Below are positions 1 through 17,622 of a stretch of DNA of 64,000 nucleotides, one piece after another. The stretch is taken from the NCBI GenBank assembly GCA_963677495.2, contig CAXXOU010000003.1, positions 416,001-480,000 on the forward strand, read 5' to 3'. Position 1 is the first letter of the stretch. Each line of letters opens with the position of its first letter. The position numbers and the translations under genes were made by a program. The notes beneath the pieces were generated by a model, which did no database searches, was not told the origin of the DNA, and saw nothing but the letters and a program-made list of their open reading frames with translations. Source of the stretch: Candidatus Cloacimonadales bacterium. Lineage in GTDB: Bacteria > Cloacimonadota > Cloacimonadia > Cloacimonadales > JAFGVF01.

Positions 1-117
1 GGCATTCCCTATTGCGGACTTAGGTTCATTTATTCTAGCCTTGGTTATGACCTTGAACTGTATAAAGAAATTGCGACACCTCGTATAAGATTAACACCAA
101 GTATTAAGTATTTGTCA

Positions 118-843
118 TCACCTGAATGCCAGATAAATTTGTAGCATAAAGGTTAGCGTTGTTATTATACCTGTATAAAGTCTCCAATTAAATCTTCTAG
201 GAGGAGGTACAACAAGGGTATCCCCGGGATAAAGGAGTAGATGTTCTCTATACTCCAAATCTTTGGAGTCTGCAAACCAGATATGCTTTAAGTTTACATT
301 AAACACTTCCCCATCTTTCCTGATAATCCTTATAGTTTTAACTTCTCTGATATTAACAATTCCTTTGGCTAACGCTAAAGCATCTGTGATTCGAATAGGT
401 TCATATATTTGATATTCACCTGCAGCATTAACATAACCAATAATATTGAGATTATGACCGTACATCTTATCGATGTAAATAGTTACGACAGGGATAGTTA
501 CATATGGCCTGAGCTGTTCTTTAATTATAGCACTTAACTGAGCAGATGTCAGACCGGCAACTTTAATACTACCAAGAAGAGGATATTCAATTCTACCATC
601 GGGTAGGACTAAGATTTTAGTCTTAGTAAACTCAATATGATCCATAACCAGGATAGATATCCTATCACCTTTTTGTAGAACATATTCATCTTCATCAACC
701 AGAACCAATGAATCAGGTAATGGGGCAACTTTTACCTCACCTTGAAAAACATCATCTTTAGTAATTCTGGGAATATAAGTACCTTGAGCAAAGATTGTAA
801 AAGTGAAAGTAGCAACTAAAAAAATCAGTAAATATCTCTTCAT
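118..843 (-). CDS. Polysaccharide export protein (Wza/Poly_export + SLBB domain)
   Basis: Poly_export motif YVLQKGDRISILV...VLPDGRIEYPLLGSIKVAGLT, then SLBB IIGYVNAAGEY...DALALAKG and LYPGDTLVVP. Start moved to ATG at 843 (MKRYLLIF, signal peptide, GAGG RBS). Confidence 0.85.
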   Translation of the reverse strand: MKRYLLIFLVATFTFTIFAQGTYIPRITKDDVFQGEVKVAPLPDSLVLVDEDEYVLQKGDRISILVMDHIEFTKTKILVLPDGRIEYPLLGSIKVAGLTSAQLSAIIKEQLRPYVTIPVVTIYIDKMYGHNLNIIGYVNAAGEYQIYEPIRITDALALAKGIVNIREVKTIRIIRKDGEVFNVNLKHIWFADSKDLEYREHLLLYPGDTLVVPPPRRFNWRLYTGIITTLTFMLQIYLAFR

Positions 844-850
844 AAGAACC

Positions 851-1936
851 TCAATTATTGATTTCATCGAATATCTTTTTTTTGTATCTAAGGGGATTTG
901 CTTCCCAGTATTTTTCACCATTATATTCAGTAATAATACCCGGGTAAGTAAACATCTTCAAGTCCTTTGATGTCATTTTTCTTACTTTATTAGATAACTC
1001 AATTGCTTGTGGTATAGCAATATTTGTTTCTGCATCATCTAATATAGCTTTACCGACCTGTCCACTCTTGAAGTAATCAAGCTGTGAAAACTTACTCCAA
1101 AGCTCGTTCATAAAACTCTTTTGCCTGGTAATCCTATTAATAGTGCCTGTTTTGTAGTCAAGTCTCCTCATCTCCTTAGCAATAAATGTAATATAGAACC
1201 AGGAAGTATAGCCGTCAATTATATGGACACCACTATTAACTCGATATTCCTTAGCGAACTCTTTTGGAATATCGACTTTTACACCTCCAATATGGTCAAT
1301 AAATTTAATCCATGCCGGTCTATCTTGAGCGAAGAAATAATCTATATCTGTCTCAGTAACCTCTGAAACAGATTGCACAAGGGCAGATGTACCACCAATA
1401 AGATACATTTCATATAAAGTTTTAACATTACCTAGAAAGTCATGAACAGATGTAAACCAAGGAAGATGAGTTGCTGAGATAATGCCATATGTGGGATACA
1501 CATCTATCAAAATGAAAGTCCTTGGTAGACCAGCATAAATGATAGTAAACCTATCTTGATCTTCAATCATTGGCGTCTTTGGCTTAGGAATTGGAGGTAG
1601 CTTAATTCTTTTAACCGGAGGAGATTTCTTCACTTTACATGGTATACAATATGACTCCCAAGCTTCTATAATCATATCAGGATTGAACCTATCAATGTCA
1701 GCATTAGGCTTCATGCCATCAGCTTTTCTTATTAACTCGTAAAGGGTCATACCTTCATACATTGGATAAACGCCTGGGTCATAAACACAGCCACCAACAC
1801 CAGCGTAGGTTATTTCCCTTTTACTACAAGATTTAGGAAATAGAAGAAATACAATAACAGCAGAAATAATCAGAAGAAAATAGATTACTGAATAGATGTA
1901 TTTACGAGTATTACTATTTTTACGTCGCTTTTTCAC
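851..1936 (-). CDS. Membrane protein with SLBB domain, Pro-rich linker and degenerate LCP (LytR-CpsA-Psr) domain
   Basis: N-terminal TM; ComEA-like SLBB VGGCVYDPGVYPM...LYELIRKADG; LCP-like FIDHIGGVKVDI, INRITRQKSF, AETNIA. GTG start overlapping the wzc stop. Confidence 0.7.
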   Translation of the reverse strand: MKKRRKNSNTRKYIYSVIYFLLIISAVIVFLLFPKSCSKREITYAGVGGCVYDPGVYPMYEGMTLYELIRKADGMKPNADIDRFNPDMIIEAWESYCIPCKVKKSPPVKRIKLPPIPKPKTPMIEDQDRFTIIYAGLPRTFILIDVYPTYGIISATHLPWFTSVHDFLGNVKTLYEMYLIGGTSALVQSVSEVTETDIDYFFAQDRPAWIKFIDHIGGVKVDIPKEFAKEYRVNSGVHIIDGYTSWFYITFIAKEMRRLDYKTGTINRITRQKSFMNELWSKFSQLDYFKSGQVGKAILDDAETNIAIPQAIELSNKVRKMTSKDLKMFTYPGIITEYNGEKYWEANPLRYKKKIFDEINN

Positions 1937-4482
1937 TATTCATCCATATCAAGTTCATCATCCAAGCCGATAAATACTTTCAACTTGTGAAGATACAGCT
2001 CAAAACCTTTCTTCTTTCTTACTCGACCGAAGTGTGTTTCAGAGTGCACTTCATTTTCAAGGATTTCATCTTCTAGTAAGAAAGTTCTCTCAACTTTAGA
2101 ACGATTCTTAACAATAGAGAGAATCTTTAAAGGATTGTATTTATTGAAGAAACTTGATTTATCGGATTGAGGACCATACTGTTTTGAATAGTAGTAGTAA
2201 CTATAATGATAATAATCTTGGTAAGTTTTATCAAATACTTCTTTAAGCATCGAGTTAGCAATAACTCCACCAATTTTTGTATCCAGTATTTGGATTTTTT
2301 TAAGTAGTTTTTTGCAGCTGATAGAAGTAGTAAACCCCATTTTAGAAGTAAGAAGAACACAATCCATTTCGTTAACAAGAACAGATGTTTCAGGGAAATA
2401 CATGGCAGCCGGTGTATCAATAATTATGATATCACAAACGGTTTTCAAGTCATTGATAATATCCTTAAATCTTTCACTATGGTAAAGATGAGCGACACTA
2501 GGAGGGCATTTACCTGTAGGTAATATCATTAAATTATCAATTCGTGTTTTCTGAATAACTTCATGAATTGCCATCTGTTCAGTCAACACTTCGGAAAAGC
2601 CGAAAGCTTTAGTTTGTTTGTAATATCTTGAGATTTGGGGATTATAGAAATCAGCATCAACTAAAAGAGTTTTAGTATTATTATTCGCCAAAGCTATCGC
2701 TAAATAGTTAGTAATGGTTGACTTTCCTTCTCCCTTGAGAGAACTAACCACAGCTATGGCATTGTTTCTTTTATTAAGAATTAGATACCTGAAGTTCAAC
2801 GCTATTTCATTAAAAACACTTCTTACAAGTTCCTGATTATGTACTTCATCATCTGTTTTCTTAGCAGTTTGTGCATCAAGTTTTAAAGGGTTAAATTTGA
2901 ATTTTGGTATTGTCCCAATTACCGGAATATTAGGATATACTTGCAGTAGCTTTTTGATGCTACTTATCTTATTGTCAAACCTGGTTAATAAGAAAACTAA
3001 TGCAACGCTAAGAGCTAGCCCAAAAGCGAATCCATTCAGAAGAGCCATAAAAAGTTTTCCCCCTAAATGATTTTTAGGGACTGTAGCTTCTTCTAGTTGA
3101 ACGATTCTGTTAAGATCTACGTTAGCACTCAATCTAACATTGTTTAGCTGATTTTGTAGGTTTGTAATAGTTAGAATTAGTGCGTTTTGCTCCCGTTGCT
3201 TTGATTTGAGAATCGAGTTTTCTTCAGGACTAAGCTCCATATCGTCAATAATCTTCCTCAGAGCATTACGCTTTTGCTTTAAAGATATTGCCTTAGTTTG
3301 GGATTCTACAAGTTTCTTTAGAATTTGCTGCTTAAGCGGATTTTGCCCGACACTTCTCATTTGAATACTTTCTTCAACACCTTCAGAAATGAGAGTTCTG
3401 ACATTGGTTATATTCTTTTTAAGACCAATGACTTTAGGGTGGTTCTCTCCGTAAATAGTTAAGGCTCTAGCCAGCTCAACTTCAAGATTCATTAGCTTAA
3501 TCTTCAAAGGTTCACTATATGTTGTCTCAGTTACGTATGTCGAATCTTCTTCATTTAGCTTATTACTTAACACTTTTATATTTGATTCTTCTGCTTCCAG
3601 ATCAACCTCAATAGAAGTAAGTGTACCTTTGAAACTATTCAATCTTTTCAGGTTATCATCAAGATTTTCCCCATAGTTTCTGAAATCATTTCTTGAATAC
3701 AGAGATTTGGTAAGCACATTCAGTGAGTCAAGATCATCCGTCTTTGCCCTAATCTGCGTTTCCAGGTAATCAATTGTTTTTGTAAGGTTTTTCCTTCTAA
3801 CATAGCTATCATAGTCTTTCAAAGCTGTGAAATAGCTATTTGCAACATCGGTAGCTAGTACCGGATCTAGTGAAGTTGAGGAGATAACTAAAATAGATTC
3901 ATTTGTAGATGAACTTGAGCATCTGATCATACCTCGTGCTGCTCTTTGAGAAACTCTTCCATTAAGGTTCTCCGCAACTAACTTTGCAACATCTGAAGAG
4001 TAAACAATTTCTACCCATGTTGCTATGTCCATTGAGTTTTTTACTATAGGCTTATTGTTGATTACCTTGAGCTCAATTGAGTCTTCCTGAATAAGAATTC
4101 TTGTACTAGTTTTGTATACAGGAATCTGTCTCGAGTGATAGACATATGCACCCACTAATCCAAGAATCGTAAAAGCCAGAATTATCCACTTGTTTCGATA
4201 AGCAACTTCCAGATATTCAATCAATGAGGGCTCACTATTTTCATTTGGATTTGAAATAAATCCTGACAATTTTGAGTCATCTTCTTCTCTAATTGGCTCT
4301 TGATCGTCTATCTTAGCATTAGATGTTTGTGAAACCTGAGTTTCGATTTGTGCTTCAGAGGAAAAAACACTTTGGGAATCTTCAGTAGTTTCATTGGAAT
4401 CATTTAAATCGAGATTATCTCTTTCTAAATCATTTTCCTTTTGCTTTCTTATTTCAGTTATTGAAAGCCGTCTTTTTGACAT
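1936..4482 (-). CDS. wzc: Polysaccharide co-polymerase / BY-kinase (Wzc-like)
   Basis: Wzz-type N-domain (YLEVAYRNKWIILAF...PVYKTSTRILI), coiled coil, second TM, Walker A SSLKGEGKST, A' LLVDAD, B IIIDTP, Tyr cluster YQDYYHYSYYYY. Confidence 0.85.
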   Translation of the reverse strand: MSKRRLSITEIRKQKENDLERDNLDLNDSNETTEDSQSVFSSEAQIETQVSQTSNAKIDDQEPIREEDDSKLSGFISNPNENSEPSLIEYLEVAYRNKWIILAFTILGLVGAYVYHSRQIPVYKTSTRILIQEDSIELKVINNKPIVKNSMDIATWVEIVYSSDVAKLVAENLNGRVSQRAARGMIRCSSSSTNESILVISSTSLDPVLATDVANSYFTALKDYDSYVRRKNLTKTIDYLETQIRAKTDDLDSLNVLTKSLYSRNDFRNYGENLDDNLKRLNSFKGTLTSIEVDLEAEESNIKVLSNKLNEEDSTYVTETTYSEPLKIKLMNLEVELARALTIYGENHPKVIGLKKNITNVRTLISEGVEESIQMRSVGQNPLKQQILKKLVESQTKAISLKQKRNALRKIIDDMELSPEENSILKSKQREQNALILTITNLQNQLNNVRLSANVDLNRIVQLEEATVPKNHLGGKLFMALLNGFAFGLALSVALVFLLTRFDNKISSIKKLLQVYPNIPVIGTIPKFKFNPLKLDAQTAKKTDDEVHNQELVRSVFNEIALNFRYLILNKRNNAIAVVSSLKGEGKSTITNYLAIALANNNTKTLLVDADFYNPQISRYYKQTKAFGFSEVLTEQMAIHEVIQKTRIDNLMILPTGKCPPSVAHLYHSERFKDIINDLKTVCDIIIIDTPAAMYFPETSVLVNEMDCVLLTSKMGFTTSISCKKLLKKIQILDTKIGGVIANSMLKEVFDKTYQDYYHYSYYYYSKQYGPQSDKSSFFNKYNPLKILSIVKNRSKVERTFLLEDEILENEVHSETHFGRVRKKKGFELYLHKLKVFIGLDDELDMDE

Positions 4483-5321
4483 TACATTTCCCTACCATGA
4501 TAAGCTAAGTCAGTGAATACCATTTCCATCGTATCCTTATCAATTAGCTTTGCTTTCTCTGCAGAAGCAACATCCATTGCAATTTTACAAGCACGATTTA
4601 TTTCCCGCGGGATGCCTGAAGTCTTTCTATAGATAACTCTCAAAGCATCTGCTGTGAAAATTCTCTGCTTTGCACCAGATACCTTCAATCTATATTCAAC
4701 ATATGAGCTGGTATCATCTGAGCTCATATGGTTTAAGTGAAATCTCATCCCGATTCTTTGGTCAACCTGAGGAAGTTTTCTAATACTTTTCATGATAGCT
4801 GGTTGTCCAATGAGAATGAGTTTAATTGGGCAAAAATAGTTATAATTAATGTTAGTTAGGTCCTTTAAGAGATCCAAGTCTTTTGCTGAAATTTTCTGAG
4901 CCTCATCAAGAAATATATATATTAAACCTTTTGTGTACAGAAGTTCATCTTCAATGTACTTTTGCAACATTTTGAAAAGGTAATATCTTTTTTTTGGTAG
5001 TTTCATTGCATCTGTATCCAGAATCTGAGAAAGCACTTCTGTAAGTATCTCATTGTAAGTGAAAGATGTTGAGTCAATGTTAACAACTATATTGTTCATA
5101 TTACTTTTTTTAAGTTCAGAAATCAGTACCATCTTAGTTATCGTTTTACCGGTTCCGATCTCTCCGCTAAGTAATCCCAGATTCATGCTTTGAGAATTAA
5201 CCACATATTTAAGTCGCTCCAAAGCTTCATAATGGTCAGTACTTTTATAAAAGAATTTTGGGTTATTATTGTCCTCAAATGGTGGTTCATTAATATTCCA
5301 AAAGCTATAATAATCTATCAA
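4482..5321 (-). CDS. ExeA/GspA-like AAA ATPase
   Basis: YYSFWNINEPPF start, Walker A GEIGTGKT, Walker B IFLDEAQ, LILIGQP, SGIPREINRAC; no C-terminal peptidoglycan-binding domain. Confidence 0.85.
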   Translation of the reverse strand: MIDYYSFWNINEPPFEDNNNPKFFYKSTDHYEALERLKYVVNSQSMNLGLLSGEIGTGKTITKMVLISELKKSNMNNIVVNIDSTSFTYNEILTEVLSQILDTDAMKLPKKRYYLFKMLQKYIEDELLYTKGLIYIFLDEAQKISAKDLDLLKDLTNINYNYFCPIKLILIGQPAIMKSIRKLPQVDQRIGMRFHLNHMSSDDTSSYVEYRLKVSGAKQRIFTADALRVIYRKTSGIPREINRACKIAMDVASAEKAKLIDKDTMEMVFTDLAYHGREM

Positions 5322-5329
5322 TATTACTC

Positions 5330-5989
5330 CTATTTTCTCTGGCTAATTTTTATTTCAACTCTTCTATTTTTATATCTATTCTCTTCACTATCGTTTGCAA
5401 CTAAAGGCTTGAACTCGCCATATCCCATTATCTGTAACTGATCAGCAGTGAAGTATCCGTTACGAATGAAGAATTTAACAATACTCAATGCTCTAGCAGT
5501 AGATAGCTCCCAATTTGAAGCATACTTATTATTGGCAATAGGTACGTTATCGGTATGACCTTCTATCCTAATTTGCCAGTTATCATCATCCTTAATAACA
5601 TTTTTAATTTCAATTGCTATTTTCATTAAAGTATCATGAGACAACCATCTAAGCTCAGCTTCTCCTGATTCAAAAAGTATCTCGCCCGGTACAGAAATCA
5701 CTTTTTCATTAATATCACCGTCAAGTTTGTTTTCAAGCGAGTCAACTATAGTCTGAGCAGCCTCAAGTTGTTTCTTCTGTTCCTCAGCTATTGTTTTCCA
5801 ACCAGTCTCAGTATCTCCAATCACGAAATAGAAAACAAAGAAGATGAGTAACAGAGTCATCATATCAGCATAAGGAACCAAAGCAGTATAGAATCCAGAG
5901 AAGTCATTATCAGGAGTGTTATTAGTACTCTCCTCAATCTCTTTAATGACTTGCTTCGATTTACCTTTAAAATCCTTAGTATTAAGCAT
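5330..5989 (-). CDS. motB: Stator B subunit, MotB/PomB-like (TM with ion-binding Asp + OmpA-like PG-binding domain)
   Basis: TM motif VPYADMMTLLLIFF; OmpA-like ILFESGEAEL, IRIEGHTDNVPI, SNWELSTARA, NRRVEI. Confidence 0.85.
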   Translation of the reverse strand: MLNTKDFKGKSKQVIKEIEESTNNTPDNDFSGFYTALVPYADMMTLLLIFFVFYFVIGDTETGWKTIAEEQKKQLEAAQTIVDSLENKLDGDINEKVISVPGEILFESGEAELRWLSHDTLMKIAIEIKNVIKDDDNWQIRIEGHTDNVPIANNKYASNWELSTARALSIVKFFIRNGYFTADQLQIMGYGEFKPLVANDSEENRYKNRRVEIKISQRK

Positions 5990-6719
5990 AGATCTTTGTT
6001 AATTCTGTTCTGATAATTTCAGAGTTGCGCTTTTCAATAACACCTGATATACCTTGAATAATAATTTCTCTAGAAATAAACTCATGCTCCGAGCGTGAAG
6101 ATATTTTACCTGCTATCGGTCTAAATATTACAACTGACAAAACTAGACCATATAGTGTAGTAACGAGTGCAAGACTCATTGCTTGCGGGATAACAGCTGG
6201 ATCAGCAATATTGCCAAGCATAGCAATCAATCCAATCACAGTACCAATCATGCCAAACATCGGAGATATATTACTCGCTACACTAAAAATCTTTGCTGCA
6301 CGTAATCCTGATCTCAGAATCGATCTACTCTCAGATTCGAGAAATTCCGAAATCCTTTCTTTAGGTATATTATCTGCTAACATAGTAATAGTTGTCAATA
6401 GAAAAGGAATGTTTTGAACTTCGTCGTATCCTTGTATCTCGATAAAGCTAAGAGTTCTGGAGTCTTTACTAACACCAACCATAATGTCTACCATATCATC
6501 ATGTGTTGTAGGTGGTGTGAAGTAAACTGAGCTCAAAGTCTTTAATGAATCCTGAAGATTAGAAATGGAGTAAGTTGCTAATAAAGCTGCAATTGTTCCT
6601 CCAAGAGTAACCAATAATGCAATAGGATCAAAGTATTCTATTAAAGTTCCTTTCGCACTAATAGCTATGAGAATTATTGCAACACTTAGTATGATACCGA
6701 TTAATGTACTTATTTTCAT
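5982..6719 (-). CDS. motA: Stator A subunit, MotA/PomA-like
   Basis: N-terminal hydrophobic helices (STLIGII; LLVTLGGTIAA), cytoplasmic loop, SPMFGMIGTVIGLIAML, AMSLALVTTLYG, PIAGKI; overlaps motB by 8 nt. Confidence 0.85.
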   Translation of the reverse strand: MKISTLIGIILSVAIILIAISAKGTLIEYFDPIALLVTLGGTIAALLATYSISNLQDSLKTLSSVYFTPPTTHDDMVDIMVGVSKDSRTLSFIEIQGYDEVQNIPFLLTTITMLADNIPKERISEFLESESRSILRSGLRAAKIFSVASNISPMFGMIGTVIGLIAMLGNIADPAVIPQAMSLALVTTLYGLVLSVVIFRPIAGKISSRSEHEFISREIIIQGISGVIEKRNSEIIRTELTKIYA

Positions 6720-6728
6720 GCTAATCCT

Positions 6729-8108
6729 TTAAAAACTTAGTATTTGACGAATCTTTCTTAATGAATAGTTAAGGATTGTATTTTTCTCTTTCTTGCTCAA
6801 CTCACCGTAAGATTCAATATCTTCTTTAATAATCATTATTGCTCGTTCTGATAGCTGTGAATAGAATTTACTCTTAATCTTAGAGTTCACGCTTGCAAGA
6901 AACTTCACGAGTTCTAGGTGGGTTAATTCAAGAGAAATCTGTTCAATCTGGACATTAGAAAGCACAAGGATATCTTCCAAAAGGAAAACTTTATCTGATA
7001 TTTCTTTAGCCTTGTATGAATCCACAAGCTGAATTGAATCGTAAAGATTCTGTGAAACTTCAAAATTGGAATTGTTAATTATTTTTGCGAGAAGTCCAAC
7101 ACCTTCGAGTTGAATGGCTTCCTTCTCCATTACTTCTAGATATTTGTTATAAAGACCTACAACCAATATTTTTAGGTCCAGTTTGAGCTTTGTTTGGTTT
7201 GAAAGCATAGCCTGAATAATCTGGTTGCGATTCTTAGTAACATGTTGGAAAAAGTTACCAGCTTTTGAAGGAGATATTTGGGAAAGAATAAATGCAATAT
7301 CTTCAGGAGTTTCCTCTTCAAGTATTTCTGCCATGTTTTCATCTGAAAGTTCTTCTAAAAAATCAAATCTTGTAGGCATAGCATCGTCTTCTTCATCTTT
7401 TAAAACTCTGACTTTTAAGGGTTCAAGAGGAACTTTGGGGTGTGAACTTTCGACCTGAGCTGTTTGAATAACATCAGGCATCTTAGCACTGCTTATAGCT
7501 TCTATGTTTGATACTTTTATCTTTCTCATCGATTTTGCAATGATTCTCATTCCGGATCTAATGTTATTTAGTAAAAGGAACATTAAGAAAATTACAATGA
7601 TAAAGAAATATAGTTGATAATTGTTTGCTTTAGGTTTACTCATTTCAGCGAGCATAGCCTCAGTTTTAATATCTAAAATATCGCCCTGAACTTCATTGAT
7701 TGTTATAATATCTCTAATCTCATTCTCAAGGAAAATTATCAATGTTTGAGATGTTTTAAGAGGTACTTTCACACTAATCTTCTTTCTTAATATCTCGGTA
7801 GGAATCACATCTTTAAGATCAGTTTCAACAATCTTGTTATCTGTCTTACCAACCGGTAAACCGGGTAAACTCATACTTGGATCATACTTAAAGTCAGATG
7901 ATTTAGCTTCGAATAGATTGTATTTCAAGTCTAAATCAACACCAACGATGCATTCACCAACAAATGGCTTAACAATATCTTCAATTCGGTTAGCAAGCTC
8001 ATTTTCAGCTTTTAACTCAGCAAGCGAACTGGTTGCTTCAGAGTTAAGATTTGCAAAAATGAACAAGATAGAAAAAATCAACAGAAGCAGTTTAATTTTT
8101 CTTATCAT
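6729..8108 (-). CDS. FliF(RBM3-like)-TM-FliG(middle + C-terminal) fusion protein
   Basis: Signal/TM; ENELANRIEDIVKPFVGECIVGVDLDL...LPGLP...KKISVKV...INEVQGDILDI (FliF ring domain pattern); TM YFFIIVIFLMFLLL; FliG-M FDFLEEL...EETPEDIAFILSQI; FliG-C KVFLLEDIL...QLSERAIMIIKEDIE. Confidence 0.75.
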   Translation of the reverse strand: MIRKIKLLLLIFSILFIFANLNSEATSSLAELKAENELANRIEDIVKPFVGECIVGVDLDLKYNLFEAKSSDFKYDPSMSLPGLPVGKTDNKIVETDLKDVIPTEILRKKISVKVPLKTSQTLIIFLENEIRDIITINEVQGDILDIKTEAMLAEMSKPKANNYQLYFFIIVIFLMFLLLNNIRSGMRIIAKSMRKIKVSNIEAISSAKMPDVIQTAQVESSHPKVPLEPLKVRVLKDEEDDAMPTRFDFLEELSDENMAEILEEETPEDIAFILSQISPSKAGNFFQHVTKNRNQIIQAMLSNQTKLKLDLKILVVGLYNKYLEVMEKEAIQLEGVGLLAKIINNSNFEVSQNLYDSIQLVDSYKAKEISDKVFLLEDILVLSNVQIEQISLELTHLELVKFLASVNSKIKSKFYSQLSERAIMIIKEDIESYGELSKKEKNTILNYSLRKIRQILSF

Positions 8109-8231
8109 CTATTCCTCCATATCTTGTATGTATTTATATCTACATGAGAAACTAGGCAAGTAAAAATTTATAATTTTTTTGTTTGACTTCACAAAAAACC
8201 CCAGCTATTAATGCAGTGATAAGGAGCGATC

Positions 8232-11200
8232 ATGTATTATAAACATACCCAAAAGACTCGTATATTAACAATATTCGTGTTATTTACGTCCCTAACTAGC
8301 CTTGTTGCAGTGATTTCTTTTAACACTTCTATTTGGAACGGTAATCATTATATTTCCGGTGAAACCTCATTTGATTATTTTTCTTATGAAGTGCAGAACG
8401 GAGATGTTAATGGTGATGGGATAGCTGATTTAATCTGCTCTGCACCCTATTCTGACTATCAGGGACGCAACTCTTCTGGTACTGTATATGTTTTTTACGG
8501 TATTTCAATTCAGCAAAACTATCAATACATTGACCTATCATCTGAGAATGCTGATGTCACAATTGTAGGTGCAAATAGCAATGATCAGTTAGGAAAATCC
8601 CTTGGAATTGGGCAAGTGAATGCAGACCTGTATGATGATATTGTTATCGGCGCTCCTTATGCTAGTTCAGATACAGTTCAACAAGTAGGTAAAGTCTTTG
8701 TCATAAGTGGTAGTAATCAGCTACCCGCGTTTATTGACCTTGCAACATACCCCGCTCAGACCTTTGAAGCTAATAACCCAAACGACCTTTTTGGCTCTAC
8801 TCTCAATCTCGTCGACCTTAACGGTGATTTAAGGCAGGAGATTGTTATTGGTGCTCCAAATGCTGATCGAGATATTGCTAATAACTGTGGTAAAACTTAT
8901 ATATTATGGAGTACAGTTACTTATCCTCTTATTAACAATATCAATGACTTATCTGATATAACAATCTTTTCCGGTCTTAATACAAATGATTTATCAGCAA
9001 CCACTTTCAGTAGTGGAAACGTTAATAACGACTCATATCAAGATCTATTGATAGCTGCACCTGGTTATGATAATGATCTTTATAACAACAGTGGTGCTAT
9101 CTATATTATAACTGGTAGATCATCGATTCCATTTCAAGAGTTTCAATTAGATAATAGTACTTATGTAACATCAACTATCAAAGGTGCAGAACAAAATGCC
9201 CAATTAGGATTATCACTTGCTTGTGGTGACTTTAATGATGACAATAATGATGATATTATTGTATCGAACTTTTGTACTGATAATGAAACAGGCAGTCTGT
9301 ATATGTATTTTGGTAGTAACTCCATACCTAATGAGTTTCAGTTAACTGAACAGAATTCCAACTTTGTAGTTTTAGGAACTGAAACTGATAACAGTTTTGG
9401 TAGTAATTTATTGATAGAAGATCTTAACAATGACCAGATTAGTGATTTAATAATTTGCACACCTGATGCTACCACATCTAATGGAGCTTTGAGTGGTAAA
9501 GTCCAAGTTCTTTATGGGCTTAGCAGCCCACCTGTTGTTATAGATTTCAATGAAAGCACTCCTGATGAAGTATATCTTGGAGCATCAAGTGATGACCTTT
9601 TCGGCACTTCTGTTACTATTTTTGATTTCAATAGTGATAACAAATTAGACATCTCTATTGCTGCACCACAAGGTCATAGTAATCGAGGAGCAGTTACCAC
9701 AGTTTACGGTGGGTTACCTTTATTCAGCAATCCAAACCCGGTAGATGAGGCAAGTGATGTTGATATTTCACAATCTGTGTCTTTCACTTTGTATGATGAT
9801 GAAGGCATAGACCTTAACTCTTTAGGTGTTACAATTGCAGGCACTTTCTATGATTTAAACAACCCTAACCTCTCTTATGCCGGGGAAGCCACAAATTATC
9901 GAATCGCGGTTACTCCACAGCAATATTTCGGATATAATCAAATTATTGATGTAACTGTAACAGCTACTGATAATGATGGATATTTGATTCCAACAACAGC
10001 TTACAGATTCTATACAAGACAAGACACAGATCCTCCATATACAAACACATGGATACCATCACCGGGAGATACTGATGTATCAGTTGATACAAACATAAGC
10101 TTCCATATTCTTGACTTGGGTGAGGGTGTCGATTTGACGACTATTGAAGTGAATGTTAATGGTGAGATCTACTATAATGGTGATCCAGGATTTAGTTATA
10201 GTGGAAGTTCCAATGACTATTATATAGAGATTGATCCAGCAAACAATTTTGGGTTCGAGCAAGTTGTTAATGTTCTTATTAACGCTTCTGATCTGGCCGA
10301 GAATCCCAATGCCATGAGCACTTTTGCCTATTCCTTCCAATGTTCACAAGATCTTGCTTCCCCTAGCTTGCTCTATATAGACCCATCGAGCCAAGAAGTA
10401 GTTGCTAGAAATCATCCCATAACAATTGAAGTTGTAGACCCGGAATCAGGTTTAGATCTATCATCTCTAGTTCTGACATTGGATGGTTCTTCTATTATTG
10501 AACAATGTGAGATTACACAGATACAGCAAAATAATGGTTATCGCTTCTACTGGAACCCGGTTCCTGACAATCTATACTCTCTAGGAGAGCATTCAATAGA
10601 GTTATATATTCAGGATAATTCCGCTAATTCCAATGCGATTGATACACTCTCAGTGTTCACGGTAGAGGCTGATTTAGAAGCTCCATATACTATCAATCAC
10701 ATTCCTGAGAAATTCAGTTTAGATAATCCAGAGAATACACATTTTAGTGTAGATATTCTTGATATTCTTTCAGGAGTTGATTTGGAGTCAGTATCGATAA
10801 ACATTAATGATTCTGAAATAATAGATTTACCAGAAACTGATGTAGTAATTATTCCAAATGGTTATAGGATTACTTACACACCATCAAACTATTTCAGTGA
10901 TATTGTAACTATTCAGATTTCTGCAACTGATTTGAATACTCCTCCTAACTTAATGCCTTTAGAGGAGTATACTTTCACATGTATACAAGATTTAGTTGCT
11001 CCCTATATTGCTGCTGCAGCTCCATCAGATCAGGAGCTGAATGTTCCACAGGATACAGATGTTTCTCTATCGCTTAGAGATGATTTGACAGGTGTAAATC
11101 CTGAATCTATACAACTATTTATTGATAGCGAAGAAGTTACAGATAATATAATTATAACTGAGTTATCTGATCAGATCGATCTTTTGTATAATCCCGATGA

Positions 11201-12908
11201 TGACTTTGATTTCAATCAGTGGGTCACAGTTAGAGTTGTATGTGCAGACTTAGCTTCCACACCAAACCCATTAGATCAAACTTACTCCTTCAAAATCATC
11301 CCGGATATTGAACCGCCATATCTGGTAAACATGATACCTGAAGATCAAGAAAGTGGTGTCGCTACTGTTGCAGAGGTTTCATTTGAAGTTCACGACGATG
11401 GACTTGGTGTTAACATAAATTCTTTGACTGTATATGAAAACAATATGCTAGTAACTACTGTATATGAGCAGATTCCAGATACAAATAATTACTTAGTGAC
11501 GTGGGAGCATGAACCTTATGAATATGGTGAAGAAGTAAACATAGTTGTTTCCGTCTCGGATATCGCAACAATACCAAATACTTTGTCTAACTTTATTTAT
11601 AGTTTTACAATCGCTGATGATGATGTGATTCCTCCATACTTTGACGGATTCAACCCGTCACCTCAGAGCATCGACGCTCCTGTTGAAACTTCAATCTCAT
11701 TAAAGATACTTGATACTGAGACTGGTATAAACAAGAATTCAATATTGTTCCACGTTAATAACCAAATTGTGGTTGATTATGAGCTGGAAGATATAGTTGA
11801 GGGAGATGCAACAGGAGTAAGGCTGTACTATCAACCTGCAACTGATTTCAACTACAATCAAACAGTAAATGTTCAAGTGTATGCTATTGATAACTCATCC
11901 AATCATAATGAAGCCAGTATAAATTACTATTTCACTACTTTATCAGACACAGAACCACCATATCTTGTTACAGCTAATCCTGCTGATGGTGAAAATGGGT
12001 ATGCTTTCTCTTTGATTTACCTTTTGTTTAGAGACGACCTTTCAGGAATAGATCCCAACTCCATAGATTTAGAGATAAATCAGGAACCTGTTTATGACTT
12101 TGAAATTGAATCAAAGTTTGAGGGTTGTGAAGTTCGTTTCCTGACAGGTAGTTTTGAAGGAAATGAAACAGTAGAGGTTTCCTATACAGTTGCCGATAGT
12201 ATAGGAAATCTTCTTCAAGGCAATTATAGTTTCAGTATTATTGAAGACATCTATGAGCCTTATTTTATCTTAGAGAATCCCATTATTGGAGACATTCAAT
12301 CTGATGATGTTTTACAAGTTGCCGTTTTAGATAAAGGAACCGGAATTGACTCTACATCGGTAAGGTTCTGGGTTAATAATCGTGAGATTCATACTTTCCA
12401 GTTAAATAGAGATGTATATTCTACTAATCCGGACTCATTAGGTTATTTATTACTTTATCCTCTAGATAATATGTACTACCCGGGACAAGAGCTCAACATA
12501 GATATTGAAGCAGAAGATAACTCATCTCCGGTAAAACTATTTGCTCAAGATAGCTTTATTACACATGTTTTTAAACAAGCTAAGGATGACAAAGTAACAG
12601 TTGTACCGGATATTATAACTCCAAACAATGATGGTTTCAATGACAATGTTAGAATTATTATACCTCTAGACTCTGGAGATGATGAAGCTGAATGCATAAT
12701 CTTCAGTTTAAAAGGCAAAAAACTTATAGAACTAAATTGCAATCCTTATAACTATTTTGATCAAGATGCGGGAACTTCCTTGCAGTACAAATCTGCTTTA
12801 TGGAAGGGAGTAAATGATAATGGAAAAGGTGTACCACCTGGAGTTTATATCTGCCAAGTAAAGGTTAATGGTAAAACACACCTTAACACAATAACGGTTG
12901 CGAAGTAG
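8232..12908 (+). CDS. Giant secreted adhesin-like protein: FG-GAP/integrin-alpha beta-propeller, tandem Ig-like repeats, type-B (CHU_C-like) T9SS CTD
   Basis: Repeated GDVNGDGIADLI/IGAP motifs in the first ~500 aa; ~110-aa repeats D..PPY....P...V.....ISF.I.D...GVD..SI; C-terminal VVPDIITPNNDGFND...WKGVNDNGKGVPPGVYI. Confidence 0.8.
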   Translation: MYYKHTQKTRILTIFVLFTSLTSLVAVISFNTSIWNGNHYISGETSFDYFSYEVQNGDVNGDGIADLICSAPYSDYQGRNSSGTVYVFYGISIQQNYQYIDLSSENADVTIVGANSNDQLGKSLGIGQVNADLYDDIVIGAPYASSDTVQQVGKVFVISGSNQLPAFIDLATYPAQTFEANNPNDLFGSTLNLVDLNGDLRQEIVIGAPNADRDIANNCGKTYILWSTVTYPLINNINDLSDITIFSGLNTNDLSATTFSSGNVNNDSYQDLLIAAPGYDNDLYNNSGAIYIITGRSSIPFQEFQLDNSTYVTSTIKGAEQNAQLGLSLACGDFNDDNNDDIIVSNFCTDNETGSLYMYFGSNSIPNEFQLTEQNSNFVVLGTETDNSFGSNLLIEDLNNDQISDLIICTPDATTSNGALSGKVQVLYGLSSPPVVIDFNESTPDEVYLGASSDDLFGTSVTIFDFNSDNKLDISIAAPQGHSNRGAVTTVYGGLPLFSNPNPVDEASDVDISQSVSFTLYDDEGIDLNSLGVTIAGTFYDLNNPNLSYAGEATNYRIAVTPQQYFGYNQIIDVTVTATDNDGYLIPTTAYRFYTRQDTDPPYTNTWIPSPGDTDVSVDTNISFHILDLGEGVDLTTIEVNVNGEIYYNGDPGFSYSGSSNDYYIEIDPANNFGFEQVVNVLINASDLAENPNAMSTFAYSFQCSQDLASPSLLYIDPSSQEVVARNHPITIEVVDPESGLDLSSLVLTLDGSSIIEQCEITQIQQNNGYRFYWNPVPDNLYSLGEHSIELYIQDNSANSNAIDTLSVFTVEADLEAPYTINHIPEKFSLDNPENTHFSVDILDILSGVDLESVSININDSEIIDLPETDVVIIPNGYRITYTPSNYFSDIVTIQISATDLNTPPNLMPLEEYTFTCIQDLVAPYIAAAAPSDQELNVPQDTDVSLSLRDDLTGVNPESIQLFIDSEEVTDNIIITELSDQIDLLYNPDDDFDFNQWVTVRVVCADLASTPNPLDQTYSFKIIPDIEPPYLVNMIPEDQESGVATVAEVSFEVHDDGLGVNINSLTVYENNMLVTTVYEQIPDTNNYLVTWEHEPYEYGEEVNIVVSVSDIATIPNTLSNFIYSFTIADDDVIPPYFDGFNPSPQSIDAPVETSISLKILDTETGINKNSILFHVNNQIVVDYELEDIVEGDATGVRLYYQPATDFNYNQTVNVQVYAIDNSSNHNEASINYYFTTLSDTEPPYLVTANPADGENGYAFSLIYLLFRDDLSGIDPNSIDLEINQEPVYDFEIESKFEGCEVRFLTGSFEGNETVEVSYTVADSIGNLLQGNYSFSIIEDIYEPYFILENPIIGDIQSDDVLQVAVLDKGTGIDSTSVRFWVNNREIHTFQLNRDVYSTNPDSLGYLLLYPLDNMYYPGQELNIDIEAEDNSSPVKLFAQDSFITHVFKQAKDDKVTVVPDIITPNNDGFNDNVRIIIPLDSGDDEAECIIFSLKGKKLIELNCNPYNYFDQDAGTSLQYKSALWKGVNDNGKGVPPGVYICQVKVNGKTHLNTITVAK

Positions 12909-12916
12909 GAGGAATA

Positions 12917-14380
12917 ATGAAAAAGATACTTATAACAACATTCGCTTTCTTCCTTATCGCTAATCTGTTCTCTTTCAATTTTGAAAAAGCCGGAATACGT
13001 AACTTCTCAATGGGTAACACTGGTATCGCTCAATCCTTTGATGCTTCAGCTGCTGTATATAATCCTGCTCTATTAGCACACATTAAAGAGTTTTCATTGT
13101 TAACTGACAATAGAATATACCTGTATGAACTTGAAAATGACCAGTTATCTTATAATTCTGTAATTGTATCTGTTCCTCTTGGCACAAAATTCAGCTCTGC
13201 TTTTTCATCTGATGTTTTTCAGTCAGACCTTTATCAAGAACTGCATCTAGGTCTGCATGCCGGTACTTTCATAAGAGGTGATAGGTTCAAAGCAGGGATA
13301 GGATTAAACTACTTTAACGCTGGATTTGGTTCAAACATCTACACTGCCAATGATCCACTTTTTGTTGACAATGATGATAGCAGTACTGCTATAGATTTTG
13401 ATTTAGGATTCGCATATTTAGTAAACAACAGATTACAATTTGGTTTAGTTGGTCGGAACCTTCTACAATCAAAACTTGCAATTGATTCAGATGATACACT
13501 GGCAAGAGAAATTGGATTTGGTGCGACCTTCAGCATAATTCCACAGTGGTTAATCGCTACAGATTTAGTGTATACTTCTTACAATGAAGAAGACTTTGAC
13601 GAGTTAATATACTCATTTGGTACCGAATACAGACTTTCAAATAACCTAGCATTAAGAGGTGGATTGAACAATACTGATTTGAGTTTTGGTTTTGGATTCC
13701 TTGTCCTTGAAAAAGAGTATTTACAAAAGTATCGTGACCCTCTAAACAATAGAAAGATGGTGAATAGTAAGTCTATTGCACTATCTGTAGACTATGGTTT
13801 TAGTTATCCTGTGCTATCAGATATGGAAATACCATATGGAAACCACTTTGTCGGACTTGAACTCAAGTTTGGAAGCTCAACAACTGATGAAGACAAGCTT
13901 GCATCTCAAATACCTCCAAGAATTCAAACTGAGTTTATCAAAGAGCCAATGAAAGCTATTGAGACCCCACAACTAGCTACAGTTGACACATTGTATATCG
14001 AGATCGAAAAAATAATAAAGGATACTGTTTATGTTGTTGATACATTGAGAGTTTTCACTGGTATATCTACTGATGAATATCTTCGCAAATCTAAAGAACT
14101 TGATGCAGTAAAGCTTGAGCTCAAAGACTATCAGGATCTTAATAAAGCTCTTATACATATTACAAACGCCACTAAATACTATTATCAAAGTGATCTTGTG
14201 AAAGCAGTAGCAGAGTGCCGTGCAGCCATTAGACTTGCTCCAAATATGGCTCTAGCCTATATAAAACTAGGTTCTATATATTACCGAATGGACGAAAAGG
14301 ATAAAGCTTTCTCAAATTGGAGAAAAGCCAAAGCTATAGACCCGAATAATCCAGAACTTAAAGCTGTCTTTAGGGAGTAA
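12917..14380 (+). CDS. PorV/PorP-SprF-like outer-membrane beta-barrel fused to C-terminal TPR
   Basis: GIRNFSMGNTGIA...AAVYNPALLA (PorV/FadL-fold N-terminus), amphipathic strands, LALRGG; TPR CRAAIRLAPNMALAYIKLGSIYY...AIDPNNPEL. Confidence 0.7.
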   Translation: MKKILITTFAFFLIANLFSFNFEKAGIRNFSMGNTGIAQSFDASAAVYNPALLAHIKEFSLLTDNRIYLYELENDQLSYNSVIVSVPLGTKFSSAFSSDVFQSDLYQELHLGLHAGTFIRGDRFKAGIGLNYFNAGFGSNIYTANDPLFVDNDDSSTAIDFDLGFAYLVNNRLQFGLVGRNLLQSKLAIDSDDTLAREIGFGATFSIIPQWLIATDLVYTSYNEEDFDELIYSFGTEYRLSNNLALRGGLNNTDLSFGFGFLVLEKEYLQKYRDPLNNRKMVNSKSIALSVDYGFSYPVLSDMEIPYGNHFVGLELKFGSSTTDEDKLASQIPPRIQTEFIKEPMKAIETPQLATVDTLYIEIEKIIKDTVYVVDTLRVFTGISTDEYLRKSKELDAVKLELKDYQDLNKALIHITNATKYYYQSDLVKAVAECRAAIRLAPNMALAYIKLGSIYYRMDEKDKAFSNWRKAKAIDPNNPELKAVFRE

Positions 14381-14603
14381 CACTATAGAGAAAACATTCA
14401 TGAATTGACATCTTTTCCCTTAAGTAAAGAGCTTGCTTATTCACGTAGGTTTCTTTTAAGGAGGTAATGATTCATTGCCTGCTACTATACTATCATTTTA
14501 CTTAATCACACACTAGCTTACTGTGTCAGAATTATAGAAACACAAGACACAGATATCAAAGCTATCTTCACCATCTTTAATAACCTTCTATTTTTCATCT
14601 TTT

Positions 14604-14772
14604 CTCATTTATTCATCCTTAAATCCCTCACTTTATTCCCTTAAAAACCTAGAATCTCGCTTGTCCCTCCCTTTAGCCTCCCTAGACCCTCCCTATGAAC
14701 CCCTAAAGTTATCCACATCGTGTGCATAACTTTTCCAAGAGTAAAACCAGTTCTTTATGAGAGGACAATGAT
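14604..14772. repeat. Intergenic inverted-repeat element (family copy) with 11-bp periodic core and DnaA-type box pair
   Basis: Right end TTTATGAGAGGACAATGA resembles the TIR of the 27099 copy; CTCCCT at 14667/14678/14689; TTATCCACA-tcg-TGTGCATAA at 14709-14729. Confidence 0.5.
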
Positions 14773-14946
14773 AGAACAAATGAACTGCAGTAAATATCTC
14801 ATACTATGCTTTACCACGAATTGTTAAGGTGTACTTGTACGAAAACCATTTCAGAGTTGAATAACTTGACCGGATAAAAGAGCTTGATATATATGAGTGA
14901 TTATATCAGTTGCTTCTGGACTGATTGGGAGAATAAAGGAGCATTT

Positions 14947-15927
14947 ATGAAGAGATCCATTGAAACTTGTAGAGGACAATTGTTGAAGTATGTATACATA
15001 TTACTGGCATTGGCTTTCATGCATATCTTAACATCATGCGAATTTGAAGATAATGAGGGAAAGTATTGGTCTGAAAATTGGATTGCTACAATGAATATTG
15101 ATGGGTCTGAGGTTGAATACCTTTACTATGGAAGGGCAGATTTACTCTACAATGGAGAATACATTATCTTCTCAACACGAGATTCAATTATGACAATTGA
15201 TCGTGATGGAACGGAAGTGGTAATAAATAGAGATGGGTTTGATGTTAAGCAAGTCACTGAAGATAAGATTGTTCTTTATGGAGCTAGTGATATTCACTTA
15301 ATGGACATTGATGGATCAAATCTAACTAATATGACAAATCATTTGAATTGTTTTGCAGGACATTCGTTTCTTTCAGAGAACTATCTGATCTATGCGAGTG
15401 GATGTGGAGACTATGTTGAAGGATTTGAATATTCATTGGAGTTGATAGATATGAAGAATAACGAAACAACTAGTTTAGGGATATCTAGCAGTGATCCATT
15501 TAGTGATTTAATACTAGTAGAAGATGAGGTTTTAGTCAGTAATAGTGGTTATTTGAAAAGTATAGATATTTCAACAAAAGATATCGAAGTTCTATGCGAT
15601 GATAGAATGGTTTCACCGAAATATGATGAAGCAAACTTAACAGTTATATATTATGATTCGCATTATGGAAGAATACGCTCATTTAATACAGAAACAAGAG
15701 AGTTTAACACAATATATAACTTTAATCCCGGAGTGAATTACTCCAAGAAAAGTACAACTTCTGATTTTGAATACATAGCACTAAGTGGTGCGTATGAACA
15801 GGATACTGTAATCAACTTGAGAACCGGCCAAAGACATAGTTTAGAAGTATATTCAGAGGGAGCAGAATTTATTGAGGATTATCGAATAATCAGCACTGTG
15901 TTGAGAAAGTTTCCGGAGGAGGATTAA
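14947..15927 (+). CDS. Lipoprotein, probable beta-propeller (TolB/DUF5050-like)
   Basis: AAGGAG RBS before ATG 14947; lipobox LTSC; repeated IATMNIDGS/IHLMDIDGSNLTNMT blades. Confidence 0.6.
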   Translation: MKRSIETCRGQLLKYVYILLALAFMHILTSCEFEDNEGKYWSENWIATMNIDGSEVEYLYYGRADLLYNGEYIIFSTRDSIMTIDRDGTEVVINRDGFDVKQVTEDKIVLYGASDIHLMDIDGSNLTNMTNHLNCFAGHSFLSENYLIYASGCGDYVEGFEYSLELIDMKNNETTSLGISSSDPFSDLILVEDEVLVSNSGYLKSIDISTKDIEVLCDDRMVSPKYDEANLTVIYYDSHYGRIRSFNTETREFNTIYNFNPGVNYSKKSTTSDFEYIALSGAYEQDTVINLRTGQRHSLEVYSEGAEFIEDYRIISTVLRKFPEED

Positions 15928-17112: not shown

Positions 17113-17121
17113 GGAGTCCTT

Positions 17122-17622
17122 ATGAAACCTGATTTTTCGAAAACAAGAATATTTAAAAGCTTAGATAAAGATCAATTAGAGGTAGTGGAAGCTTATCTGG
17201 AACCTAAACAATATGTTTCTGGAGACTTAATCATTGAAGAAAATACAGAAGGTTCTCGATTATACATCCTAACATCCGGGAAAGTGTTTATTACAAAGAA
17301 TCTTGTAATGGATATTCTTGATAACCATAATGCAGAAGCAAAGCGATTAGCTACATTAACCGGTGATTTCATGCCCAGTTTTGGTGAAAACGGTCTTATA
17401 ACAAATGGTTTAAGAACTGCTAATGTTATTGCAGGAGAAGATTGCACAGTCTTTGAGCTATCCGGTGAAAACTTTGAAGAGATAGTTTCAAACAATGTTA
17501 ACATTGGATATAAGATAGTACGTAATATAGCTGATATTGTCTGTGGAAGACTTGAGCAAACAGATAAGAATGTAGTGAAATTGGCAACTGCTTTGTACCT
17601 TTCAGTTGGCGACAGGAAATAA
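17122..17622 (+). CDS. Cyclic nucleotide-binding domain protein
   Basis: IIEENTEGSRLYILTSGKV, FGENGL...RTANVIA (phosphate-binding cassette); no HTH. Confidence 0.85.
   Translation: MKPDFSKTRIFKSLDKDQLEVVEAYLEPKQYVSGDLIIEENTEGSRLYILTSGKVFITKNLVMDILDNHNAEAKRLATLTGDFMPSFGENGLITNGLRTANVIAGEDCTVFELSGENFEEIVSNNVNIGYKIVRNIADIVCGRLEQTDKNVVKLATALYLSVGDRK

Follow-up and report, generated by a model that had tools for sequence, protein, structure and literature searches.

FliG and the flagellar-type stator MotAB are regarded as parts that belong to flagella only. What, then, does a FliG torque interface with a dedicated stator do where no other flagellar part accompanies it? The question is raised by the window, the whole 64,000-nucleotide stretch of a Candidatus Cloacimonadales contig analysed here, and above all by a gene at 6729..8108 on its minus strand, whose 459-residue product, FliGx (P0001), joins a FliF-type ring-building domain to the middle and C-terminal domains of FliG and is followed by genes for MotA and MotB. 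The answer towards which we lean, as somewhat better than an even chance, is an envelope machine of the rotor-stator kind, distinct from a flagellum. An earlier note, made from the letters of the sequence, had read FliGx as a single-chain rotor; this single-gene reading is supported in the parts open to sequence and structure comparison and its coordinates hold, although the note gave no strand and missed the conserved partners of the gene, namely an outer-membrane barrel with a TPR domain and a giant surface protein.

The plus-strand frame of 6729-8108 is riddled with stop codons, and the single open reading frame is the one on the minus strand, on which all the segments of FliGx given below are located. 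Its translation contains every string that had been quoted for it, that is, ENELANRIEDIVKPFVG-EC-IVGVDLDL, SLPGLP, ILRKKISVKV, IRDIITINEVQGDILDI, ETPE, EGVG, VFLL and SERAIMIIKEDIE. Pfam, sequence matches to solved structures, a structural model and fold comparisons agree on a single chain with a FliF domain resembling ring-building motif 3 (RBM3), one transmembrane segment, and FliG middle and C-terminal domains, which establishes the architecture of the predicted membrane protein as a natural, stripped-down FliF-FliG fusion. Missing from FliGx are RBM1/2, which in FliF surround the export gate, FliG_N, through which FliF and FliG are joined, and the motif that binds FliM.

The AlphaFold model was built with 26 homologs in the alignment (all full-length, 27-68% identical) and has a mean predicted local distance difference test (pLDDT) of 71.4 and a predicted template-modelling score of 0.33, with blocks of about 80 in the core of the N-terminal domain. 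The chain begins with a hydrophobic segment (residues 1-22; 8043..8108), modelled as a helix at 2-22 and found in the same position in 26/26 homologs, which may be either a signal peptide or a first membrane anchor. It continues with the periplasmic ring-building domain (residues 25-155; 7644..8036), which consists of a helix at 29-50, a strand at 54-62, a low-confidence stretch at 63-104, a strand at 105-115, a helix at 121-134 and a strand at 144-149. A long helix (residues 163-196; 7521..7622) then comprises the membrane span, recognizable as a hydrophobic run, and its cytoplasmic extension, and leads into a disordered cytoplasmic linker (residues 197-244; 7377..7520; pLDDT 31-43, no FliG_N match) that occupies the place of the FliF C-tail plus FliG_N. 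The remainder is all-helical (249-458) and is made up of the FliG middle (ARM-M) domain with ETPE for EHPQ, followed by the EGVG linker (residues 245-345; 7074..7376), and of the FliG C-terminal domain (residues 346-459; 6732..7073).

For the cytoplasmic half, Pfam FliG_C (PF01706) matches residues 360-445 at E 9.8e-14, with 52 bits against a cut-off of 23.3. FliG_M (PF14841) remains under its cut-off of 25 with 21.1 bits, yet the fold is recovered through 4fq0_C, the FliG-M of a FliG-FliM complex, to which VIA-align gives Z 11.9 and a root-mean-square deviation (rmsd) of 1.7 Å over 79 residues. The NCBIfam fliG model (TIGR00207) places residues 247-441 on its positions 111-305 of 338 with 70.3 bits, against an equivalog cut-off of 226.7. 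All 11 sequence matches to solved structures (HMMER) are FliG, the best being Aquifex 3hjl (E 9e-14, residues 249-445), and by VIA-align FliGx reaches Z 15.1 with Salmonella FliG in the C ring, Z 12.5 (rmsd 1.9 Å) with the FliG-C of T. maritima (1qc7_B) and Z 11.2 (rmsd 2.1 Å) with the stator-bound (MotAB) FliG-C 8ucs_H. An MgtE_N reading of the C-terminal half, which the earlier note had set against FliG together with a loss of the charged helix, was rejected: MgtE_N obtains 26.4 bits on residues 247-307 in Pfam against the 52 of FliG_C, every solved match is FliG, and the helix is conserved.

The motifs proposed in that half fall where they were expected to fall. In the HMMER alignments to solved FliG, ETPE takes the position of EHPQ (LEEETPEDIA against LKNEHPQTIA in Aquifex), EGVG that of the Gly-rich inter-domain linker and VFLL that of MFxF (KVFLLEDI against KMFTFEDI and RMFVFEDI), while SERAIMIIKEDIE is aligned with the FliG torque helix (SKRAAKLFLEDME). 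The torque helix of FliGx (LSERAIMIIKEDIES, residues 419-433; 6810..6854) is intact, R422, E429 and D430 being invariant in 26/26 homologs; in E. coli, the torque-helix charges facing MotA are given as R281, D288 and D289 in the accessible text of a recent phylogeny (PMC12505986). The decay suspected for the FliM-binding motif is equally visible, as FliGx has ETPE and not EHPQR, and E266 is the sole residue of the motif that is invariant among the 26 homologs. As for FliG_N, no PF14842 match was found in FliGx at E <= 0.01.

The periplasmic half matches ring-building folds, and specifically that of FliF RBM3; the earlier note had named the lack of such a match as its other ground for refutation, and this ground is removed. 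At 20% identity, VIA-align superposes FliGx 25-155 on Salmonella FliF 232-438 with Z 12.8-12.9 and an rmsd of 2.5 Å over 96 residues, a lead of about 4 Z units over SpoIIIAG (9.0), OsmC/Ohr (about 8-9), PrgK (8.2-8.5) and EscJ (8.0). In the Foldseek search, FliF MS-ring, S-ring and RBM3 entries take ranks 14-29, after the FliG chains, with E 3e-5 to 6e-4 (6sd1_A, E 1.4e-4), and are followed by 1qc7_B (the FliG C domain), PrgK and EscJ, with SpoIIIAG lower still. The topology of the model is the alpha-beta-(insert)-beta-alpha-beta of a ring-building motif, its insert between strands 1 and 2 being where FliF has the beta-collar. That this collar is short, as had been claimed, is seen from an insert of about 42 residues (63-104; 7797..7922; pLDDT < 50 over 66-102) in a domain of 131 residues, against 207 in FliF 232-438. 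Within the low-confidence insert lies the SLPGLP motif (residues 80-85; 7854..7871), which is invariant in 26/26 and in 24/24 homologs and whose L, P and G are retained in 63, 64 and 61 of 71 superfamily members, respectively.

A profile of the N-terminal domain led to the same family. It was made from 24 sequences, leaving out that of locus L031 because of an in-frame stop, and when run against 1.84 billion representatives it matched 93 clusters at E <= 0.001, of which 47 were at E <= 1e-10 and 23 at E <= 1e-30. A Pfam scan covered 65 of the weaker matches, most of which combine the N-terminal domain with FliG_M and FliG_C. Three are genuine FliF proteins (P0117, P0119 and P0126, with YscJ_FliF and YscJ_FliF_C), aligned inside YscJ_FliF_C, and hhalign relates the profile to one of these, P0119, over FliF 232-394 with E 6.8e-6 and a probability of 84.6%. 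FliGx itself has no match to PF08345 at E <= 0.01, a model that passes on the N-terminal domains of remote family members: several remote fusions exceed the YscJ_FliF_C cut-off of 23.8 (such as P0113 with 36.6 bits, P0087 with 31.4 and P0101 with 30.9). The loss of RBM1/2 was likewise upheld, since PF01514 has no match in FliGx at E <= 0.01 and the periplasmic part is only about 130-140 residues long. A four-copy homo-oligomer prediction of the periplasmic domain with its own alignment reached a score of 0.39, where the mark to pass was 0.42 and controls stayed at 0.00, and speaks neither for nor against a ring. The in-frame stop of L031 (7401-7814) has a counterpart in a second homolog (G093:C409:3571-3966, one TAG), and both could be the result of sequencing error, a broken copy or recoding.

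The stator genes follow FliGx at once. The motA gene (5982..6719, minus strand, 245 codons) starts 9 nucleotides downstream of FliGx, and its product matches MotA_ExbB with 78.5 bits and PomA 8brd with E 1.5e-30 over residues 1-240, an alignment in which the four-helix transmembrane channel domain and its cytoplasmic Arg are recognized; PomA and MotP are its best NCBIfam matches. The Arg, which in such stators meets FliG, is R88, at the position of PomA R88; of 30 family-linked MotA proteins, 23 have R at this position, 3 have K and 4 have H. The motB gene (5330..5989, minus strand, 219 codons) overlaps motA by 8 nucleotides, and its product has a plug (MotB_plug, 25.6 bits) and an OmpA-type peptidoglycan-binding domain (66.3 bits), matches MotB 6ysl with E 6e-25 and keeps the Asp of the channel in its transmembrane segment (PYADMMT against VPYADILT in MotB). 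The gene context is that of a FliGx predicted to be co-transcribed with a PomA/MotB-type stator that keeps channel Asp, plug and peptidoglycan-binding domain. MotA also retains the residues aligned with PomA T158 and T186, which we take to be sodium-type markers, a hint that the stator may use sodium. In two related loci, the MotB-like proteins are short (L031 9490-10029, 179 residues; L037 9579-10001, 140 residues), with a plug and a transmembrane segment and without the OmpA domain.

This module stands in a genome (3.41 Mb in 4 contigs, 99.46% complete) in which FliGx is the one match to FliG_C, next to five MotA_ExbB genes. Searches with YscJ_FliF, FHIPEP, Flagellin_N, FliMN_C and Flg_bb_rod found no match in it and were positive in four flagellated control genomes, which fits the earlier suggestion of a ring with no type III gate and no FliM switch. 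Across the phylum, the N-terminal domain occurs in 31/151 sampled genomes and in five families (f1 8/8, f2 2/6, f5 17/31, f13 2/13 and f15 1/1; f3 0/69), while FlhA occurs in 16/151 and only two genomes, G001 and G020, have both. These counts indicate that the module is found mostly without a flagellum and is able to coexist with one. Family members also exist beyond the Cloacimonadota, as one remote member is named Omnitrophota, and a search for homologs of P0065 gave four matches, one of them named Candidatus Electryonea clarkiae; look-alikes found with a protein language model point, as leads only, to fusions of this kind in Elusimicrobiota, Bdellovibrionota, Bacteroidota and Thermodesulfobacteriota. 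In a subgroup of the remote fusions (e.g. P0093, P0098, P0113 and P0125), the Arg of the torque helix is replaced by G and the following Glu by Q.

On the other side of FliGx, divergent from it on the plus strand, lie a gene for a giant FG-GAP/Big_5 surface protein (8232..12908, 1558 codons, FG-GAP 119 bits) and a gene for a FadL/PorV-like outer-membrane barrel (12917..14380), whose product consists of the barrel (residues 59-324 or so), a flexible linker and a TPR domain (385-486). The barrel is modelled with 14 strands, the linker as disordered, and the fold is that of FadL, as Foldseek finds FadL with E 5.6e-12 and PorV of the T9SS (type IX secretion system) translocon with E 4.1e-11 (8gl6_F, template-modelling score 0.58 on the target) and 1.7e-9 (6h3i_F); PorV_fam matches at E 1.3e-10. 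All five barrel orthologs tested match the PorV/PorQ family (E 1e-8 to 1e-12, each below the cut-off). The giant proteins differ in their repeat domains, and their matches to T9SS C-terminal domains are weak to moderate, with CHU_C at 38.7 bits in locus L018.

We compared 34 related loci, nearly all from metagenome-assembled genomes (MAGs) of Cloacimonadota, with two labelled Neomarinimicrobiota and one Cytophagia, and counted the neighbours of FliGx by tblastn. MotA is adjacent in 30/34 loci and the other four end inside FliGx; MotB is present in each of the 29 loci whose DNA continues beyond motA, in 27 by tblastn and in two (L031 and L037) as a short open reading frame with MotB_plug only. 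The gene for the barrel with TPR occurs in 31/34 loci, and of the three without it two begin and one ends inside FliGx. A relative of the FG-GAP-like giant protein is found in 28/34, and L021 has a 2799-residue cadherin/Big_9 protein in the same place. In a clade about 30% identical to FliGx, all five genes lie on one strand in the order giant protein, barrel with TPR, FliGx, MotA and MotB. A second type of module in the same phylum consists of a FliGx paralog, MotA, MotB and a YfiO/BamD-like, lipoprotein-like TPR protein of 371-379 residues, twice in tandem in L046 (G127:C42, 9586-18072) and once in L047 (G112:C74, 6502-10633), and this stand-alone TPR protein makes a TPR partner the recurring fourth element. 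The LPGLP motif is missing from three low-scoring representatives of similar length (P0059, P0066 and P0070), of which P0059 matches the 475-residue open reading frame of L046 in length and Pfam scores.

How might such a machine work? RBM3 domains would assemble many copies of FliGx into a ring in the inner membrane, and ion flow through a peptidoglycan-anchored MotA5B2 would push on the torque helices of FliG-C and turn the ring, as in the flagellar motor but with no export gate, rod, hook, filament or switch. In the periplasm, the work could be passed on to the PorV/FadL-like barrel with its periplasmic TPR tail and to the giant adhesin-like protein, the turning ring, or force on the ring, acting on the TPR-bearing partner and thence on barrel and adhesin. 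The output would be to move, deploy or tension a surface adhesin, as in a gliding-like or adhesion device. In the lineage of the window, where the motor genes form one operon with a Wzc/LCP/Wza set for polysaccharide export, this output may be linked to the making of the surface layer. Ring assembly, rotation, output and a lumen holding a partner are all what we infer, and the chance that the module in its entirety represents an envelope machine of a new type is a real one. A more specific form of the proposal, in which a free-standing rotary engine of the envelope has its rotation relayed by the TPR partner to the PorV-like barrel and so drives or deploys the giant adhesin, is possible, and we hold it as rather doubtful.

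Several points weigh against a rotor-stator machine of this kind. Ring and rotation are deduced from homology, and the presumed link to barrel, TPR and adhesin from gene order. The periplasmic part of about 130 residues is too short to span the periplasm, and no shaft or adaptor was identified. PomA E96 (E98 in E. coli MotA) is Q96 in this MotA, and across the family the acidic residue expected to meet FliG R422 can be located only approximately; acidic residues occur at the nearby MotA positions 97 and 99 in 19/30 and 22/30 cases. The barrel scores 41.4 bits with PorV_fam (NF033709) against a cut-off of 90, and four orthologs are likewise low at 35-45 bits; the T9SS label of the giant protein of the window is weak, with CHU_C at 21.1 bits against a cut-off of 27 and TIGR04131 at E 0.058. 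The second type of module has neither barrel nor adhesin, so the adhesin is not an obligatory partner in the superfamily. Finally, the motor genes of the window lie in a tight operon with genes for polysaccharide export, while adhesin and barrel are divergent.

This last point is the basis of a different reading, in which the motor serves polysaccharide export: ring and stator would energise or gate a Wzc/Wza-type pathway, and adhesin and barrel would be bystanders. Downstream of motB on the minus strand are an AAA_22 ATPase resembling the XrtA/PEP-CTERM-associated ATPase (4482..5321, 279 codons; TIGR03015 145.5 bits, below the cut-off of 324.5), a Wzz chain-length determinant fused to a tyrosine-autokinase-type ATPase and thus Wzc-like (1936..4482, 848 codons; TIGR01007 116 bits, cut-off 108), a protein with SLBB and LytR/CpsA/Psr (LCP) domains resembling glycopolymer transferases (851..1936, 361 codons; Pfam) and a Wza-like polysaccharide export protein with Poly_export and SLBB (118..921, 267 codons; Pfam and NCBIfam). 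From FliGx to the Wza-like gene, the seven genes are head to tail with gaps or overlaps of a few bases. The export set is adjacent in 11/34 loci and in three gene orders (the clade of the window; the two MAGs labelled Neomarinimicrobiota together with L039; and L020), and in L020 a gene for a 697-residue sugar transferase (Bac_transf, 12212-14302) is located between motA and motB. Against this, 23/34 loci have no export set within the locus DNA covered, the five-gene modules of L028, L033 and L021 are bounded by housekeeping genes on both sides, and barrel with TPR and giant protein are far more constant neighbours. We also know of no Wzx/Wzy or synthase-type export pathway with a rotor, which counts against it further, and we consider a motor dedicated to polysaccharide export unlikely.

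Equally improbable in our estimation is that there is no rotor at all. FliGx would then be present in few copies as a membrane-tethered docking or regulatory partner that recruits the MotAB channel or gates it, and the whole an ion-flux energiser or sensor in the manner of TonB/TolA with ExbBD/TolQR. Such a role draws on the fact that ring formation by FliGx is itself deduced, on a collar insert that is short and of low confidence, and on the short MotB proteins of some relatives that have no peptidoglycan-binding domain; according to the accessible text of one review of the field (PMC9389320), the Ton, Tol and Agl systems use 5:2 motors for outputs other than rotation. It is opposed by the periplasmic domain, which is specifically of the RBM3 type that forms the 33/34-mer S-ring in every solved FliF match, by the invariance of the stator-facing charges, and by a MotB whose plug and OmpA domain are typical of stators anchored around a rotor. 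A functionless leftover of a lost flagellum might be imagined from the flagellated members of the phylum and from a 2026 preprint (PMC13277936) whose accessible part names the Cloacimonadota as one of the lineages that have lost ancestral flagellar genes to a high degree, but it is close to refuted and in our view highly improbable. Frames of about 460 residues are intact in homologs as distant as 27% identity, in which the functional residues do not vary, and the synteny with non-flagellar partners is kept. The family also extends over five families of the phylum and into other phyla, it coexists with FlhA in G001 and G020, and the loss of domains (RBM1/2 and FliG_N) is precise, unlike random decay.

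The proposed rotor-stator machine of the envelope can be compared with systems that share its parts. With the flagellar motor core (FliF MS-ring, FliG and MotA5B2 or PomA5B2) the module shares the ring domain, the FliG-M, FliG-C and stator folds, the charged torque helix, and the plug, channel Asp and peptidoglycan-binding domain of MotB. In the flagellum, however, the rotor core is two polypeptides, FliF and FliG, whereas the module has one, without RBM1/2, FliG_N and EHPQR, with a collar insert of about 42 residues, in a genome without export gate, rod, filament or FliM/N, and it is accompanied by a giant surface protein and a TPR-bearing barrel of the outer membrane.

The closest relative in print, as far as the accessible text goes, is the FliF-FliG fusion of Chlamydiaceae (10.1101/023564; PeerJ 2016), which like FliGx is a natural single chain in non-flagellate bacteria, with a reduced periplasmic part of FliF, a transmembrane segment and a cytoplasmic FliG-like part. 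The Chlamydia fusion, of about 330 residues, nevertheless keeps RBM2 and a second RBM-like segment, not RBM3 and its collar, has a FliG-M-like region only and is discussed in connection with type III secretion; the accessible part of that paper describes neither a FliG-C torque helix nor a MotAB dedicated to the fusion, whereas FliGx combines RBM3, FliG-M and FliG-C with a stator of its own. Laboratory fusions of FliF and FliG from Salmonella and Vibrio build rings (PDB 8z4d/8z4g, a 945-residue chain; accessible text of PMC11481574 and PMC6079021), so a fused chain is compatible with ring building, but these join full-length FliF to full-length FliG in flagellar systems, and FliGx is a natural, minimal chain of 459 residues. 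The openly accessible literature that was searched describes no RBM3-FliG fusion that occurs naturally, has a MotAB of its own and lies outside the flagellum. The accessible text of the 2025 phylogeny cited above unites stators of the PomAB/MotAB type in a single clade of 'flagellar ion transporter' proteins (PMC12505986), and that of the paper naming Ca. Tenebribacter (PMC8542988), whose MAGs carry the module (L030 and L032), is silent on MotA, FliG and gliding.

Gliding by T9SS in Bacteroidota (GldLM, SprA, PorV/PorP-SprF and SprB, as set out in the accessible text of PMC8986121) also has an ion-driven motor in the inner membrane, and here as there a FadL-fold carrier stands beside a giant adhesin with a T9SS-type C-terminal domain in a genome that has SprA. 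The module differs in that MotAB would act on a FliG ring from the cytoplasmic side in place of GldLM, and in that the barrel has a TPR tail and a PorV score below the cut-off. The possibility that the FliGx motor replaces GldLM for T9SS throughout the phylum was dropped: FliGx is found in only 31/151 genomes and SprA in 144/151, which means that FliGx is not a general T9SS motor. GldM_1st exceeded its cut-off in 0/151 phylum genomes, with no control genome positive, so that absence is not established, and GldM/GldL models found nothing in this genome or in those of L020 and L018, again with no positive control.

In the SPI4 system of Salmonella, MotAB-like auxiliaries, SiiAB, are encoded with the secretion system of a giant adhesin, SiiE, and are said to assist it, according to the accessible text of a preprint (10.1101/641415); unlike the module, this system as described there has no FliG- or FliF-like rotor, uses type 1 secretion and belongs to a different stator subfamily. 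The ring of the sporulation channel protein SpoIIIAG (5wc3) is a further non-flagellar use of a ring-building motif, one whose strands 1 and 2 are separated by an insert (Z 9.0), but is a weaker match than FliF (12.9) and comes without FliG and without a stator.

If the FliGx ring turns, the rotary motor best studied in bacteria is here put to a new use, and the ring offers a minimal rotor of one 459-residue protein plus MotAB for structural and biophysical work, and a test case for whether a rotor and its stator could have functioned ahead of, or independently of, the type III export machine. Should the more specific proposal hold, with rotation relayed to barrel and adhesin, GldLM/T9SS and Agl-Glt would be joined by a third gliding-type machine that moves adhesins, and there would be a living flagellar rotor-stator pair without a type III export apparatus, which bears on the origin of the flagellar motor. 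The uncultured Cloacimonadota, common in anaerobic digesters and anoxic waters, would with a turning ring also gain a candidate device for attaching or for moving on surfaces.

Some further features of these loci were recorded. In L018, the gene directly upstream of FliGx (9612-9980) encodes a CheY-like response regulator of a single domain, and two such genes are present in L020 (2409-3261), a hint that lineages without FliM may be under phosphorelay control. L020 also has, downstream, a Por_Secre_tail protein with an FGE-sulfatase domain. A scan of positions 1-15000 of the window was uninformative, with 67 promoter-like sites where 61.8 are expected and 8 terminator-like sites where 6.3 are expected. 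Beyond the barrel gene, the window encodes a 347-residue protein without a family match (14884-15927), followed at 16003-17622 by a potassium-channel protein (Ion_trans_2 and RCK) and then a small cyclic-nucleotide-binding protein.

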